64,000 nucleotides of DNA from Gemmatimonas sp. Its GTDB lineage: Bacteria > Gemmatimonadota > Gemmatimonadetes > Gemmatimonadales > Gemmatimonadaceae. The stretch's first letter is position 1. The number at the start of each line of letters is the position of its first letter. Under the pieces are notes generated by a model that ran no database searches, had not been told where the DNA came from, and was given only the letters and a program-made list of their open reading frames with translations. Below are positions 52,581 through 59,493 of this stretch, piece by piece. The stretch is taken from positions 32,001 to 96,000 of the forward strand of contig JANNVQ010000040.1 of assembly GCA_031414535.1 (NCBI GenBank). Direction: 5' to 3'. Both the position numbers and the translations under genes were made by a program.

Positions 52581-53849
52581 ATGACGGATGACGGACGATG
52601 GAAGTCGAGCATTTGGAATATCCGGCGTGCGGCCGCGCTCGTGGTCGTGTCCTTGTGGCTTCCGTCCTCCGTCCCGCAGTCGGTGAGCGCGCAACAGCGC
52701 CCCGCCCTACCGCCCTCCGCCGCGCAGTCCGCCGAGAACATTCGGCGCGAGCAACTGGAACTTGAGCGCTTGCGGCAGGAGCGCCGCCAGCTTGAAGCGC
52801 GGATGCGGGACTATCAGCGCAGCGCGCAAAACGTCTCGCAGGAGCGCCAGAACCTTGAACGTCAGGCGCAGGCCACCGCGCGCGTGGTCCGGTCGCTCGA
52901 CAACCAACTGGGCACGCTCTACCTGGAAGTGGACAACGTGAACGGCTCGCTTGTCCGCACCCAAGACGAGTTGATGATCAAGCGCGCCATCCTCACGCAT
53001 CGCGTGCAGGAGATTTACAAGCGTGGTCCCTTGTACTCGCTGGAGGCCTTGCTCTCGGCTGAGAGCTTCGGCTCGCTGGTGGCGCGCTATAAGTATCTCC
53101 ATCTCGTCGCCCAGCGCGACCGCACGCTGCTGGCGCGAGTGGAGCAACTCAACGCACAGATCAACTCGCAGCGCTCACTCCTCGTGCGCCTGCAGAGTGA
53201 TGTGGAGAGCAACCGCCGTGAGAAGGCGGAAGAAGAGGCGCGTCTGCGCCGTCTTGAATTACAGCGCGGTCGGACGCTCGCGCAGATCGAAGCTCAGCAA
53301 CGCACGGCCCAAGCGCGCCTCCAACAAATTGCGCGCGACGAACAGCGCCTGACCAACGTGATCACGGCACTCGAGGAATCGCGCCGCCGTGCCGACGCCG
53401 CCGCTGCGCGCACGGGTGCCGCCCCACGGGCCAGCAGCATCACCACCGCCGACCTCGGCCGCCTTGACTGGCCCGTGGAGGGCAATGTGGTGTACCGCTA
53501 CGGTCGCGTGGTGAACCCCAACAACACGTCCATTACGTGGAACGGAATGGGCATCGGTGCGGCAGCCGGAACGCCGGTTAAGGTCATTGCGGATGGTGAA
53601 GTCGTGTTCGCCGAGCAGGCGGGCACCTACGGCCTGACGATGATTGTGCAACATGGCGGTGGCGCGTACACGATGTACGCCTCACTGCAAGAGATTCACG
53701 CGCGCCGCGGTTCTCGCGTGACCAAGGGGCAGACGATCGGGACCGTAGGACAAGCCGATCCCGATCTTTCGCCGAGACTGCACTTTGAGATTCGCCCCAA
53801 CGGCGGGCGGGCAGTGGATCCGTTAGAGTGGCTGCGCCGCCAGCGTTAG
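52581..53849 (+). CDS. envC: Murein hydrolase activator EnvC (coiled coil plus degenerate M23); start uncertain
   Basis: Coiled coil; WPVEG, WNG replacing HxxxD, LHFEIR. Confidence 0.88.
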   Translation: MTDDGRWKSSIWNIRRAAALVVVSLWLPSSVPQSVSAQQRPALPPSAAQSAENIRREQLELERLRQERRQLEARMRDYQRSAQNVSQERQNLERQAQATARVVRSLDNQLGTLYLEVDNVNGSLVRTQDELMIKRAILTHRVQEIYKRGPLYSLEALLSAESFGSLVARYKYLHLVAQRDRTLLARVEQLNAQINSQRSLLVRLQSDVESNRREKAEEEARLRRLELQRGRTLAQIEAQQRTAQARLQQIARDEQRLTNVITALEESRRRADAAAARTGAAPRASSITTADLGRLDWPVEGNVVYRYGRVVNPNNTSITWNGMGIGAAAGTPVKVIADGEVVFAEQAGTYGLTMIVQHGGGAYTMYASLQEIHARRGSRVTKGQTIGTVGQADPDLSPRLHFEIRPNGGRAVDPLEWLRRQR

Positions 53850-54304
53850 CGCAGGGCGCTTCCAGCCGCGACCGTAATGTTGACCGGGAAGGGACCGAAG
53901 TCCTCGTGGTTCTCCTCGATGTGCAAAAGCGAGAATGACACTGAGCGCACGCCCGCCGTGGTGCCGGTCAGGGTGCCGGCAAACGGGCCGGTGCGCGCGA
54001 AGGTGATGCCAGAACCCGGTGTGACGTTCACCTGAAAGTCAGCCTCGCGCTCCACGAGCGCGTTGGCCATCGCGGCGTCGAGGAACTGCACGCTCACAGC
54101 CGTCGCCACGCCGGAGTTAATGGTAATGCTACCCGTCACCGCTCCGGTTGAGTTCACGGTGATCTGCTGGGCTCCAGCCGTGATTCGCATGAAGTCCACT
54201 TCCACCTCTTGCACGCCGTCGTCCTTACAACCGGCCACACCGAGGGACAGTGCGACAAGCGCGAGTGCGGCAAAGCGGCGGGTAGAGCTGACAGTCTTCA
54301 ACAT
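53846..54304 (-). CDS. Lipoprotein co-transcribed with TonB receptor, possible metal binder
   Basis: Lipobox VAGC; HIEENHEDF. Confidence 0.75.
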   Translation of the reverse strand: MLKTVSSTRRFAALALVALSLGVAGCKDDGVQEVEVDFMRITAGAQQITVNSTGAVTGSITINSGVATAVSVQFLDAAMANALVEREADFQVNVTPGSGITFARTGPFAGTLTGTTAGVRSVSFSLLHIEENHEDFGPFPVNITVAAGSALR

Positions 54305-54367
54305 CGTACAGGATTCTCCTCGTGGAAGTAGTGTGTGCGCGGCCTCTGCCGCGCGGGTGGTGAACAG

Positions 54368-56638
54368 CTAGAATTGCACCCGGTAGAGCAGGACGACGTT
54401 GCGCCCTGCCTCGGGGATGATCTCCTTGGTCCGTGAGAGGTGCTCACGGATCTCGGAGTTGAGTAGGTTGTCCACGCGTAGCGTGAAGCTGTGCAGTCGC
54501 TGGCCAAGCACGAGGCGCCAGCCGAGGTGTGCATCGAGTGTGGCGTACCCCGCTGTCTCCGTCTCGAAATCCCCAATCAGACGTTGCGCCGCCGACATGC
54601 GAATCCCGCCGCCGTAGGACCACACAGGCGTCTCATGGCGGAGACCCACGCGCCCGTTGAGCGGTGGCATAAGGGGCAAGAAGCGCGACTCAATGCGGTT
54701 CGGCTCGCCATTCAAGCCAGGAATGGTGTCGCGATTCCCGCTGATGCTGCCACGCACGTAGCTTACCGTGCTCTCGAGGACGAGATGGTCGACGAGCGTC
54801 ACCTCCATCTCGCCCTCTGCACCAATGAGGACCGCGTCCTCATTGGTGAACTGAAACTTCCAGCGCTCGCCAACGCGTCCAAGCTCGCCAGTGTTGCGTG
54901 GGAACAGATAACCGTTCATTTGATTCGCAAAGGCGGCAACTTCAGCCCGCACACGGCTCCGCTGCACTCGCACGAAGACATCCGCACCCAATCCAGTCTC
55001 CTGCGAGTTGCGTGGATTGCCAACGTCGTACGAGTAGGCCGCGAGGTGCGGGCCATCGGAGTACAGCTCGTTGAAGTCCGGCGTACGGAAGGAGCGGCTG
55101 ACGCTCGCGCCCAGCCGCAGGCCATTTCGCGCCGTGTAGATGGTACCCAGCGATGCGCTCAGTGAACCGAAAGTTCGCGCCACGGTCGGCAAGGTGTCAT
55201 TGCCCACCACGATGTTGCGCGGATCAAGTGGGATAAATCGCGCGAAGTCGTAGCGAAGCCCCGCCTGCGCACGCCAAGGTCCCGCCCCAAACTCCTCCAC
55301 CATGAATGCGGCCGCCGACCAATCCGCCGTCGGCGTGGCGCGGATGGCGCCCGAAGGATTGATGTCGCGGTACTGCGCCCGAAAGCCAAGCACCCCTCCT
55401 TCGGCGGGCCCCGCGTGCGCGTGCCGCGCCACAACCTCGAGCACGGACATCAACTGGTCGAAGCTCGTCGCCACGTTTCCGCTGGCCGTCACCTCGTCGT
55501 GGTTGTAGGCCGTAAACGTCGCCGTGGCCTTCACGCTTTCAAATCGCCCACTCGCCGGATGCCAGTCGGTCTCGCTACGAACCGTGTGTCGTTGCATGCG
55601 GATATTCACGCCGCCGGGATGCGCACCCACGAAGCCGCCAGGAATCCCATACTCGTTGCCGTAATAACGATACGAGAGTCCGCTGTATCCCCAATCGCCA
55701 ACCTTGGAGACGCCGAGCGCCGCGCCGGCGGATGTAACTCCGGTGTTGCCGAGACGCCCCGCGGGCGTGCGGAGGTCTCCGGCCAAGCGCCCGCTTCCTT
55801 CAGCGCGCACGGAGAAACCCAGTACCGGCAGCTCCACGTATCCACCAAGCGTGCCACCATCATTCACTGAGCTCGCCTGCGCACTCATCTCTCCGTGAAC
55901 ATGTTGCGTGGCCACGGCCGGCACTTCTTGACGAATGACATTGACCACGCCGCCAAGCGCACTGGATCCGTAGAGCAATGACATCGGCCCACGAACGACT
56001 TCTACCTTCTGTGCCGTGAGCGCATCCACCGCCACCGCGTGGTCCATGGACGTACTGGAGAGATCTCCCGGCCGTTGGCCATCTTCGAGCACGATGACGC
56101 GGTCGCCACTTAAGCCTCGAATGACGGGACGCGCCGTGGCCGGACCCATCGACGCCATCGAGACGCCAGGCGTTCCGCGGATGGTGGAGCCTAAGGTGCC
56201 ATCCAGTGCACGGTCGAGCTTGGCATCGGACAACACATTGGTCGCCGTGATGGCGTCCACTGCATTGCGCTCCGACACCTGACCCGTGACTACCGTGGCG
56301 CTCAGCTGCAGCGGCGAAGGACGCATAGCGACCCGCAACGAATCCATCCCCACGCGCACCACCAACTGCTGGGATTGAGACTGATACCCGATGCGTTGCA
56401 CGGTCAGCTGATAGGAACCCGGAAGCACGGCGCCAAGCGAGAAGGTGCCGTCCTCGTGCGCCCTCACCTCACGATGCAATTCAACGAGGCGCACTAACGC
56501 GGCAGGCAGGGGAGCGCCGGTGGACGCGTCATTCACGCGTCCCACGACAATCGCCGCTTGGGCCCTGAGGCTTGAGCTATTCACGGCGAGCACGACGGCA
56601 ACGAGCGCCGCACGCTTCGCGATGGCGGAACGAATCAT
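54368..56638 (-). CDS. TonB-dependent receptor (ZnuD-like metal uptake)
   Basis: N-terminal CarboxypepD_reg-like; RPVIRG, DHAV, EVVRGP plug; C-terminal Phe. Confidence 0.9.
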   Translation of the reverse strand: MIRSAIAKRAALVAVVLAVNSSSLRAQAAIVVGRVNDASTGAPLPAALVRLVELHREVRAHEDGTFSLGAVLPGSYQLTVQRIGYQSQSQQLVVRVGMDSLRVAMRPSPLQLSATVVTGQVSERNAVDAITATNVLSDAKLDRALDGTLGSTIRGTPGVSMASMGPATARPVIRGLSGDRVIVLEDGQRPGDLSSTSMDHAVAVDALTAQKVEVVRGPMSLLYGSSALGGVVNVIRQEVPAVATQHVHGEMSAQASSVNDGGTLGGYVELPVLGFSVRAEGSGRLAGDLRTPAGRLGNTGVTSAGAALGVSKVGDWGYSGLSYRYYGNEYGIPGGFVGAHPGGVNIRMQRHTVRSETDWHPASGRFESVKATATFTAYNHDEVTASGNVATSFDQLMSVLEVVARHAHAGPAEGGVLGFRAQYRDINPSGAIRATPTADWSAAAFMVEEFGAGPWRAQAGLRYDFARFIPLDPRNIVVGNDTLPTVARTFGSLSASLGTIYTARNGLRLGASVSRSFRTPDFNELYSDGPHLAAYSYDVGNPRNSQETGLGADVFVRVQRSRVRAEVAAFANQMNGYLFPRNTGELGRVGERWKFQFTNEDAVLIGAEGEMEVTLVDHLVLESTVSYVRGSISGNRDTIPGLNGEPNRIESRFLPLMPPLNGRVGLRHETPVWSYGGGIRMSAAQRLIGDFETETAGYATLDAHLGWRLVLGQRLHSFTLRVDNLLNSEIREHLSRTKEIIPEAGRNVVLLYRVQF

Positions 56639-56720
56639 TGACTGACCTGAAAATGGATGGGACGCCGAGGGCATCCCGAGGACAAGAAGGCGCGGCCGAT
56701 TGGCCTGCGCCGCAGTCAAC

Positions 56721-57080
56721 TCAACCGAGCGGCGGGGCTCGGGAGGACCGTCCGTCCAAGAAGTGCATCTCAAGCGGAGCCACACCGCGCACTCCGGTCG
56801 CTGGCGCGCCGGCGTCGGCGATGCGGGGAATCTCGATTGATGCCGGTGCCGCAACCGCGCGTAGCCCGTGAGCCAGCTGGCAGATGTCGCAAGCATCGCC
56901 ATGGGAGTCGGGGCAATGCCCACCATCCGCGTCCTCGATGTGCAACACCACCTGCTGCCCGTGATCCACGAAGCCGTCGGCCACTGGAGCGCCAGCCACA
57001 AGGCCCACGTAAAACAAAAACCAGAGCCCCGAAAGCACGCGCCAAACCACGCCCCGACCCTTTGGGGCCGAGCGGCGCAT
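56721..57080 (-). CDS. DUF2946-like leader peptide with CxxC and C-terminal RAPP (start 57080 or 57107)
   Basis: TM segment, H-rich HCPDSHGDACDIC, SRAPPLG-stop directly upstream of the TBDR. Confidence 0.8.
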   Translation of the reverse strand: MRRSAPKGRGVVWRVLSGLWFLFYVGLVAGAPVADGFVDHGQQVVLHIEDADGGHCPDSHGDACDICQLAHGLRAVAAPASIEIPRIADAGAPATGVRGVAPLEMHFLDGRSSRAPPLG

Positions 57081-57234
57081 TGGGCTCACTGGGGACAGAA
57101 GCGACATGACAGAATCAGTAGTTGGGAAGATCCTTCTTTTCAACCCCAAGCGACGCAACGGGTTCCCCTTCAAGGGGTTAGGGGTCCTCCAAGAATCCCC
57201 CAACAGCAGACGGACCCGCTAGATTTCCTCTCCT

Positions 57235-59493
57235 ATGAAGCGAGAGGACGCCCTCGAGTACCACGCGCGCGGACGACCCGGCAAAATTGCCGTCGTGCCG
57301 ACCAAGCCGCTGACCAATCAGCGCGATTTGGGGCTCGCCTACTCGCCTGGCGTGGCCGAGCCCTGCCTCGAGATTAAGAACAACCCCGAGGATGCGTACA
57401 AGTACACCGCCAAGGGTAATCTCGTCGCCGTCGTCACCAACGGCACCGCCGTGCTCGGACTCGGCAACATTGGCGCCCTCGCCGGCAAGCCAGTGATGGA
57501 AGGCAAGGGCAACCTCTTCAAGCAGTTCGCTGACATCGATGTGTTCGATCTCGAGATTGGCTCCGAGGATCCGGACGATGTCATCAAGTTCTGCCAGCTC
57601 CTTGAGCCCACCGTGGGCGGCATCAATCTCGAGGACATCAAGGCACCGGACTGTTTTTACATCGAAGAGACGCTGCGCCGGACGCTCAAGATTCCGGTCT
57701 TTCATGATGACCAACACGGCACGGCCATCATCTCCGGCGCGGCACTGCTCAACGCCCTCGAGGTGAGCGGCAAGGACATCACCCAGGTGAAGGTCACGTT
57801 CTCCGGCGCCGGTGCGGCGGCCATTTCCACGGCCGAGCACTACGTCCGCCTCGGCGTGAAGCGCGAGCACATTCTGATGTGCGACCGCAAGGGCGTCATC
57901 TACGAAGGCCGCGTCGAGGACATGGATCCGTACAAGGCACGCTTCGCCAACGTGACGAGCAAGCGCACAATCGCCGACGCGCTCGATGGCGCTGATGTGT
58001 TTGTGGGACTCTCGGTGGCGGGAGCCGTGAGCGGTGCGATGGTGGCCAAGATGGCGAAAGCGCCCATCATCTTCGCGCTGGCGAATCCCGTGCCTGAGAT
58101 CTCGCCTGACGAAGTACGCTCGGTGCGCAGCGATGCCATCATCGCCACCGGACGTTCCGATTATCCGAACCAGGTCAACAACGTCCTTGGCTTTCCCTTC
58201 ATCTTCCGTGGCGCGCTCGACGCCCGCGCCACAACCATCAACGAAGAGATGAAGATGGCAGCCACGCGCGCGCTCGCGCAGTTGGCCAAGGACGATGTGC
58301 CAGAGAGCGTGAGCGCGCTCTACGGCCTGAGCAACGTGAAGTTCGGGCCAGAGTACCTCATTCCCTTCCCCTTCGACCCCCGCGCACTACTCACGGTGGC
58401 CCCGGCGGTGGCATGGGCAGCCGTGGCAAGCGGCGTCGCGAAGGATTTTATTGATCTCGACGAATATCGCAATCAGCTCGAGAACCGGCTTGGCCGCGCT
58501 CGCGGCGTGATGCGTGGGTTGGTTACGCGCGCGTCTCGTGAACCCAAGCGCGTGGTATTCCCAGAGGGCGAAGATCCCAAAATCATTCGCGCCGCGCGCA
58601 TCCTCTCGGATGACGGCATCGCGCACCCCATTTTGCTCGGCCGCAAAGATCGCGTGACCGCAACGGCCGAAGAATTGGGCGTGTCGCTCGACAGCATCCA
58701 GGTTGAGGAACCCGGCCTGAGCGCGCAACGCGAGCGCTACGCGGACTACCTCTGGCAGCGCCGCCAGCGCAAAGGCCTCTCGCTCACCGAAGCCGGCCAG
58801 CGCGTCGCGCGAGCCACGACCTTTGGCTCGGTGATGGTGGCCCTTGGCGACGCCGATGCGCTCGTCGGTGGAGTGGGCAAGCACTATCCCGAGACCATTC
58901 GCCCGGCGCTCGAAGTCATTGGCGCGGACCCGCGCCACGGCATCGTCAGCGGCCTGTATATGCTGGTGTTCGAGAAGCACATCGTCTTCTTCGGCGACAC
59001 CACGGTGAACATCGAACCGACGTCGGAGCAGCTCGCGCAGATTGCCTGGTCCGCTGCGTCGTTGGCACGCACGTTTGGCATCTCGCCAAAGATTGCGATG
59101 CTCTCGTTCTCCAACTTCGGTTCGGTCAAGCATCCAGAGTCGGAGAAGGTAGCCCAAGCGGTGCGGATGCTGCGCCTTCGCGACCCATCGCTCGTGGTAG
59201 ACGGCGAGATGCAGGCCGATACCGCATTCAGCGCCGACATTCTCTCGGCGCGCTACCCGTTCTCGGCGCTCAAGGAAGCCGCGAACGTTTTGATTTTCCC
59301 CAACCTCAGCGCGGGGAACATCGCGTATAAATTGCTTACACAGCTGGGCGGGGCCACGGCGATTGGCCCCATCCTCGTTGGCATGCAACACCCTGTGCAC
59401 GTTTTGGAACAGGGCGCCGACGTGCAGGAGATCGTCAACATGGCCGCCGTTGCAGTGATTGATGCGCAGCAACGCTCCCGTCCCACCACCTGA
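57235..59493 (+). CDS. maeB: NADP-dependent malic enzyme with PTA domain
   Basis: [21 protein letters not shown]-terminal PTA-like DGEMQAD. Confidence 0.96.

Follow-up and report, generated by a model that had tools for sequence, protein, structure and literature searches.

We analyzed a 64,000-nucleotide (nt) stretch of Gemmatimonas sp. DNA (GenBank assembly GCA_031414535.1, contig JANNVQ010000040.1, positions 32,001 to 96,000; hereafter the window), in which a small open reading frame (ORF), the leader, lies ahead of a gene for a TonB-dependent receptor on the minus strand. A preliminary description of this region had proposed that a ribosome stalled at the Arg-Ala-Pro-Pro (RAPP) end of the leader opens an 8-base-pair (bp) mRNA stem that otherwise buries the receptor start codon. 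Our conclusion is that the leader, of the DUF2946 family, likely controls a ZnuD-like importer, and that the 8-bp stem is private to this genome and likely not the switch. We give this reading as a whole about an even chance of being right. Its narrower part, that the stem is not a switch melted by stalling, is probably correct. All coordinates are positions in the window.

A RAPP leader ahead of a ZnuD-like receptor

The genes and motifs at the center of the analysis are as follows.

56721..57107, minus strand: leader ORF, 128 amino acids, DUF2946 family (Pfam PF11162 match; homologous leaders in 27 orthologous loci)
56880..56891, minus strand: CxxC motif (CDIC), likely metal-binding as judged from its sequence
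56730..56741, minus strand: RAPP codons, predicted to stall the ribosome with the first Pro codon (56735-56733) in the P site (sequence; PMC10951233, PMC12992588)
54368..56638, minus strand: TonB-dependent receptor, 756 amino acids, with an N-terminal carboxypeptidase-regulatory-like domain (Pfam); closest to ZnuD

The leader passed the Pfam cut-off for PF11162 by a narrow margin (25.5 bits against 23.7; E = 2.5e-5), and we consider it very likely to belong to DUF2946, the family of CruR and CutF. It consists of a hydrophobic N-terminal segment, a region with His, acidic and Cys residues, the CxxC motif, and then RAPP, Leu-Gly and the stop codon. The CxxC lies 46 residues from the Arg of RAPP, and the corresponding spacing in CruR is 45 residues (PMC9426467, in part; sources marked in this way are cited for a portion of their text). 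All full-length leaders have a hydrophobic stretch C-terminal to a basic region, as judged by eye. The start codon of the leader was chosen on the basis of the upstream sequences of its orthologues. The leader is the first gene of its operon, with a divergent gene upstream (57235, plus strand) and the receptor downstream. A scan of the genome with a leader pattern gave eight matches, and only the one at this locus resembled a true leader in front of a receptor. The Pfam match and the orthologous leaders thus support the earlier suggestion of a RAPP arrest-type leader at this position.

The solved structure nearest to the receptor is ZnuD (PDB 4rdr, E = 1.2e-34), and the best NCBIfam model is also ZnuD (NF038289), with a score of 184 bits that is far below the cut-off of 950. 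The alignment leaves ZnuD residues 255-316 without a counterpart. Judged from these sequence comparisons, the receptor is ZnuD-like and not ZnuD. Receptors that are 72-83% identical to it come from Gemmatimonas or from metagenome-assembled genomes of Gemmatimonadaceae (named records). A receptor start at 56638 is consistent with the N-termini of the orthologues; a start at the AUG at 56674, inside hairpin 2 (below), was ruled out because the orthologue N-termini align to the AUG at 56638.

A stalled ribosome is predicted not to reach the 8-bp stem

The RNA elements between the leader stop codon (UGA, 56723-56721, minus strand) and the receptor AUG (56638) are the following.

56713..56720, minus strand: 5' arm of the outer stem, GUUGACUG, directly after the leader UGA; +16 to +23 from the P-site codon
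56637..56644, minus strand: 3' arm of the outer stem, CAGUCAAU, including the A and U of the receptor AUG
56689..56711, minus strand: hairpin 1 (fold and consensus; position conserved, with covariation)
56659..56677, minus strand: hairpin 2, followed by AUCCAUUUUC (fold; weak terminator-like match)
56645..56648, minus strand: AGGU, a weak Shine-Dalgarno (SD)-like word, outside the 8-bp stem

We found the arms, hairpins, AGGU word and start codon where the preliminary description had placed them on the minus strand. The 88-nt stretch folded into the structure described, an outer stem enclosing two hairpins (-40.8 kcal/mol; z = -4.51; none of 200 shuffled sequences was as stable). The z value refers to the complete structure, with both GC-rich hairpins, and not to the outer stem by itself. 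When the start region was shuffled 5000 times, 24 of the shuffles matched the 8-bp complement alone, in a test chosen after the site was picked. The stem formed in most local folds, but its probability in ribosome-free folds ranged from 0.03 to 0.95 over 18 sequence contexts. It spans positions -6 to +1 of the receptor gene, so the initiation region is predicted to be masked, and deletion of the arm is predicted to lower the opening energy by about 3 kcal/mol. Two details of the preliminary description need qualification. AGGU is present next to the stem (56648-56645) but is not inside the eight pairs, and it is not present in the closest orthologues. The U-rich run reported after hairpin 2 exists as AUCCAUUUUC but has four U and starts 6 nt past the hairpin stem. 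A search of Rfam gave no matches at E values up to 5 within 56300-57400. The UCCUCC of the leader's Ser-Ser codons was considered as an anti-SD sequence and rejected, with no pairing to the start region (mean z +0.4 to +0.8, segment -26 to +4).

The position of the 5' arm relative to a stalled ribosome depends on the codon from which it is counted. In RAPP arrest the first Pro occupies the P site (PMC10951233; toeprint of CruR, PMC12992588), and in bacteria the mRNA channel accommodates 11 nt beyond +1 (PMC7282821, in part). We therefore counted from the first Pro codon (56735) and not from the last. The arm does begin at the tenth base past the last Pro codon (which ends at 56730), as had been stated. 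With 56735 as the reference, the stop codon occupies +13 to +15. The arm, at +16 to +23, starts 3-4 bases beyond a channel that ends at about +12, so the stem is predicted to be outside the reach of the stalled ribosome and not within it. When only downstream sequence was folded, the probability of the stem was 0.97-0.98 with +13 as the first free base, 1.00 with +16, 0.88-0.94 with +19, and 0 with +22. The energy needed to open -15 to +9 of the receptor gene was 6.1 kcal/mol in the free mRNA, 5.6 and 6.7 kcal/mol with a stalled ribosome, and 3.3 and 3.0 kcal/mol with a ribosome at the stop codon. Thus, in the footprint-constrained folds, only a ribosome at the stop codon opened the stem. The claim that stalling opens it was not supported for this stem, which stays closed under the stalled footprints in the downstream-only folds; the idea itself fits the paralogues and other genera, as described below.

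The stem is not conserved in the orthologous clade

We compared the locus with two sets of related loci. The first comprised 49 loci (L001-L049), of which 40 were kept after removal of five that lacked a leader or were cut short and four duplicates or near-duplicates; these were 27 orthologues, including the window, and 13 paralogues from the genus. For the second we took 80 additional loci from the family; a leader was recognized by pattern in 42, and the other 38 lacked one or were cut short. After one duplicate was dropped, this set contributed 19 orthologue-like and 22 paralogue-like loci from other genera (the 22 include L206, which belongs to the same genus). We picked start codons by hand from in-frame AUGs. 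In a quick tree the two receptor groups were separated with support of 100, and the 27 orthologues formed one clade (Shimodaira-Hasegawa-like approximate likelihood ratio test, 98). Because the loci are related, all p-values given here overstate significance.

Pairs of the 8-bp stem were counted by anchoring on the stop codon and the AUG, since automatic alignments place the 3' region poorly. All eight pairs were present in this genome only; one orthologue had seven, and 25 of the 26 others had five or fewer. Similarly, the longest run of pairing between the 11 bases after the stop and the start region reached 8 in this genome and did not exceed 6 in any of the 26 others. Across the 27 loci, cognate duplexes were not better than non-cognate ones (p = 0.36; p = 0.83 with a wider 3' segment), and the footprint shifted the mean opening energy by +0.1 kcal/mol. 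The stem is therefore not conserved. Pro-Pro, a tail of 2-3 codons (27/27), an intergenic length of 69-101 nt and hairpin 1, with both-sided changes in four of its eight pairs in the eight close loci, were kept across the clade, which points to selection.

Some orthologous leaders differ at the CxxC or RAPP motif. Twelve loci (L009-L015, L032, L035-L037 and L040) have no CxxC and a single Cys at that site; their leaders retain the upstream H, H-x-[ED]-[DG], C and H. The leaders of L013-L015 and L040 end in TGPP instead of R[AG]PP. Leaders lacking CxxC or ending in TGPP could possibly have a different metal site or a weakened arrest. An overlapping group (L009-L015, L032, L035-L038, L040 and L049) has a GGAG SD sequence at the receptor start and, among the folds listed, a local hairpin with the AUG in or near its loop. 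In that hairpin GACGCC pairs with GGCGUU of the first codons, and the leader tail GGCG-UGA mimics that partner in several loci.

A predicted hairpin over the stall codons and a C-rich tract

Two other elements distinguish this clade.

56714..56749, minus strand: H0, a predicted hairpin whose loop contains the Pro-Pro codons (consensus fold of the eight closest loci)
56649..56668, minus strand: tract rich in C and poor in G, -30 to -11 relative to the receptor start and predicted to be unpaired 3' of hairpin 2

The consensus fold of the eight closest loci contained hairpin 1 and, in place of the outer stem, helix H0. In H0 the R-S-S-R-A codons (56749-56737) pair with the leader tail, the stop codon and GUUGACU (56730-56714). 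The partner after the stop is GUUGAG/C in the eight loci. H0 and the outer stem compete for +16 and for +19 to +22. In the eight loci 97.7% of the H0 cells were paired and 8 of 11 pairs were invariant, which makes the support for H0 thin. There was one both-sided change, from C-G to G-C in this genome, and one one-sided change; the double change accounts for the GAC in the 5' arm of the outer stem. The closest loci have either the Arg codon CGA with a CUCGG tail or CGC with a CGCG tail (L004, L005, L008 and L011). H0 was cognate-specific across the 27 orthologues (permutation p = 0.01) and not in the other three groups (p = 0.84, 0.33 and 0.20).

The C-rich tract was a consistent property of the clade. 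C exceeded G by at least 4 at -30 to -11 in 27/27 orthologues, compared to 4/19 orthologue-like loci, 6/13 genus paralogues and 10/22 paralogue-like loci. Among 1082 roughly called starts of this genome, the same property was found in approximately 25%. At this locus, C also exceeded G in 78-nt windows centered on +10 to +130 of the stall site. In CruR, Rho-dependent termination occurs at a bubble with C>G once the ribosome is released (PMC9426467, in part), and rho is present in this genome, above its family cut-off.

Predicted stop-codon-centered stems in the wider family

Outside the clade, a different pairing recurred, in a register that includes the leader stop codon. A helix of at least 7 bp that contained the whole stop codon, with a partner no more than 45 nt from the AUG, was found in 9/13 genus paralogues, 16/22 paralogue-like loci and 9/19 orthologue-like loci, where the rates for non-cognate combinations were 45%, 21% and 19%, respectively. 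The stop codon UAA paired with UUA or UUG, and UGA paired with UCA or UCG. Permutation tests of the cognate duplexes gave p = 5e-5 and 4e-4 in the 13 genus paralogues, 4e-4 in the 19 orthologue-like loci and 5e-5 in the 22 paralogue-like loci. With the footprint of a stalled ribosome in place, the opening energy fell by 2.4-4.2 kcal/mol in the 13 genus paralogues (p = 0.002-0.06) and by 3.9-4.8 kcal/mol in the 22 paralogue-like loci (p = ~3e-5 to 5e-5). In L163, L167, L177 and L189 the stem extends over GGAG, ending beside the AUG. The mechanism of the preliminary description is thus predicted by these models to fit the wider family, in the stop-codon register that lies inside the footprint.

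A more distant set of loci (L050-L126; AT-rich contigs, mostly labelled as marine metagenomes) has receptors that are about 30% identical, and 69 of these 77 receptor loci have an upstream ORF with a RAPP-type end. In 37 distinct loci of this set, with starts picked automatically, the Ala-Pro-Pro codons mostly pair with the GGAG SD sequence. The footprint lowered the opening energy there by a mean of 6.7 kcal/mol; 34 opened and one closed (cognate combinations only). In these models the pairing is a third architecture of the same leader class.

Proposed explanation and alternatives

We propose that the RAPP end of the leader would stall the ribosome until metal binds the nascent chain, and that stalling when the metal is scarce would turn on the ZnuD-like importer. 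Zinc is the best guess for the metal; that ZnuD imports zinc is taken from the name of the NF038289 model. In the paralogues and other genera, the stalled ribosome would open a long-range stem centered on the leader stop codon, by the logic of SecM and CutF. In the clade of 27 orthologues, the cognate stop-stem signal has been lost, with the stop region predicted to fold onto the RAPP codons (H0) and a C-rich tract present. After the ribosome leaves, the transcript could be lost by Rho-dependent termination or decay, as for CruR. Such transcript-level control is our best guess for this clade, although we regard it as somewhat less probable than its absence.

Several results weigh against this proposal. 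When the footprint ended at +13 and the upstream mRNA was free to pair across it, the barrier fell by more than 1 kcal/mol in 4/18 contexts (by 1.2-3.4 kcal/mol) and rose in 1/18; the effect varied among contexts, so the result is not uniform. The 9-mer after the stop matched its own start region better than shuffles did in this genome (p = 0.005), with a weak signal in the eight closest loci (Fisher p = 0.016, for 1 of 10 segment pairs tried). Two close orthologues, L003 and L031, have perfect 9-bp stop-centered stems, and the stop-centered helix of at least 7 bp occurs in 6/27 orthologues, against a non-cognate rate of 16%. The 19 orthologue-like loci had a cognate duplex and no significant footprint effect (p = 0.21-0.31). 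The H0 columns are mostly invariant and under coding constraint, with a single double change. As to the Rho route, hairpins take up most of the intergenic region, H0 would cover the C-rich codons of the stall site after the ribosome departs, the C-rich tract lies at least 55 bases past the footprint, and its genome background rests on crude start calls. SD-less initiation at an open standby site would account for the C-rich tract equally well.

The mechanism first put forward, in which the 8-bp stem, extended into the stop codon, represses initiation and is destabilized by the stalled ribosome as a downstream-shifted form of the stop-centered stem, is unlikely. The stem is present in most local folds, the stop-centered stems of the family are cognate-specific and inside the footprint, the opening energy did fall in the four contexts noted above, and CutF offers a precedent (PMC9973294, in part). 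However, the arm begins 3-4 bases outside the channel, the stem persisted under every footprint up to +18 in the downstream-only folds, nearly all orthologues lack it, and AGGU is outside the eight pairs and absent in close relatives. The reverse arrangement seems improbable: H0 would hold the arm after the stop, stalling would melt H0, leaving +16 to +23 to pair across the start codon, and only a ribosome that arrives at the stop would open that pairing. Stalling would then turn the importer off, which would need metal-induced stalling, as reported for CutF (bioRxiv 10.1101/2025.02.05.636593, in part). The bases shared by H0 and the outer stem are consistent with this arrangement, as are the rise in stem probability in this genome from 0.71-0.90 in the free mRNA to 1.00 with a stalled ribosome and the lower opening energy with a ribosome at the stop. 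Under the footprint, five of the eight closest loci closed by more than 1 kcal/mol and one opened, but this effect was not significant (p = 0.11 and 0.25) and was nil over the 27. In addition, the pairing partner differs among loci, a terminating ribosome leaves the barrier unlowered in L002 and L031, and termination is brief. If the reverse arrangement were true, one leader family would drive both on-switches (paralogues, by the stop-codon stem) and off-switches (this clade), and the change between them would take the rewiring of about 20 bases of mRNA.

Coupling between leader and receptor could also have decayed, with the leader persisting, translation of the receptor initiated constitutively from the open C-rich standby region, and the stem a chance pairing. 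The lack of a footprint effect over the 27 orthologues and the several leaders without CxxC or with RAPP changed to TGPP are in line with this, but the features kept across the clade, from Pro-Pro to hairpin 1, are not, and we think it quite improbable. Least probable, and indeed very unlikely, is that hairpin 2 and AUCCAUUUUC together act as a leaky intrinsic terminator giving fixed or ribosome-modulated read-through. A terminator scan marked it, but two sites were found where 3.4 were expected in shuffled sequences, and the four U do not adjoin the stem and are not kept in the closest orthologues. Hairpin 2 was also unchanged in all constrained folds listed, which indicates that there is no antiterminator.

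Neighboring gene and upstream region

53846..54304, minus strand: lipoprotein-like ORF, 152 amino acids, directly 3' of the receptor (ORF list)

This ORF is likely in the same operon as the receptor. It matched no Pfam or NCBIfam family above the cut-off. Its C-terminus carries a His/Glu motif, LLHIEENHEDF, and its Atlas neighbors are unnamed clusters from Balneolota and Gemmatimonadota (scores 0.95-0.96). It could bind metal as a partner of the receptor.

This genome also encodes, elsewhere (G000:C5:96808-98703), another and more distant receptor of the same type (29% identical), for which the leader pattern scan gave no CxxC-RAPP leader. Upstream of the leader, at 57108-57166 (minus strand), there is a promoter-like block, GGAACCC...GGGGTTG(T)GA, followed after about 17 nt by TA..(A/C)TT, which lies 13-14 nt before the leader start codon. 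The block is also conserved upstream of the leaders in L002, L003, L004, L006, L007, L008, L031 and L047. Its position suggests a leaderless transcript, and its AACCC/GGGTT inverted repeat could be an operator. A sigma-70 scan of 53500-57400 gave no promoter-like sites; the conserved block was not scored in that scan.

Relation to known systems

The leader class is already published, in the form of CruR, CutF and the RAPP upstream ORFs (uORFs), and this locus adds a further member. RAPP or RGPP uORFs ahead of TonB receptors have been reported from Gram-negative bacteria in general, and almost all of them carry a signal sequence (PMC12992588). Gemmatimonad* does not appear in the main text or 10 supplementary files of that paper (one further file was outside the text search), and its main text does not use the term 'stem-loop'. 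We found no paper on DUF2946/RAPP leaders in Gemmatimonadota, in a literature search that did not cover figure supplements such as the drawing of the cutF stem-loop.

The closest described system is CruR (Bp2923, DUF2946/PF11162), which lies ahead of bfrG/crtA in Bordetella pertussis (PMC9426467, in part). Its arrest has been shown (PMC12992588), and a copper receptor under CruR control has been described (PMC12914433, in part). The locus resembles CruR in having a DUF2946 leader with a hydrophobic N-terminus and a CxxC about 45 residues before a C-terminal RAPP, in the position of the leader as first gene before a TonB-dependent transporter, and in a long structured intergenic region with a C>G bias around the stop. 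Unlike CruR, the best models for the receptor are ZnuD-like and not CrtA/OprC-like, the intergenic region is 82 nt instead of 162, and a lipoprotein-like ORF follows where CruR has a PepSY gene. A hairpin over the stall codons such as H0 is not described for CruR in the text available (PMC9426467, in part).

CutF, ahead of cutO in Rhodobacter capsulatus, is also a DUF2946 leader, and stalling there has been proposed to melt a stem that hides the initiation site (PMC9973294, in part), a logic that matches the stop-centered stems of the paralogues and other genera. CutF differs in its CxxxC and PPP motifs, in stalling with copper bound and in controlling a detoxifying oxidase. In addition, its stem hides a real SD sequence, whereas the stem here hides the AU of the AUG, starts at +16 and is unconserved. 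Disruption by a stalled ribosome of a stem over a downstream SD sequence is the logic of SecM (PMC10987492, in part). The RAP/P-type stall chemistry is shared with SecM, MifM, VemP and ApdA/ApdP (PMC10951233; PMC10987492, in part), which differ in that they monitor protein export, precede sec or yidC genes and have no metal site.

The same leader type is joined to two receptor paralogues in a single bacterial family by mRNA architectures that are predicted to differ. Most groups have a long-range stem centered on the stop codon, and this clade has a hairpin at the stall site together with a C-rich tract. The contrast provides natural paired constructs for how DUF2946 stalling is read out, whether through initiation or through Rho. 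Because the receptor is ZnuD-like and some of the leaders lack CxxC, these loci are candidates for the sensing of a metal other than copper.

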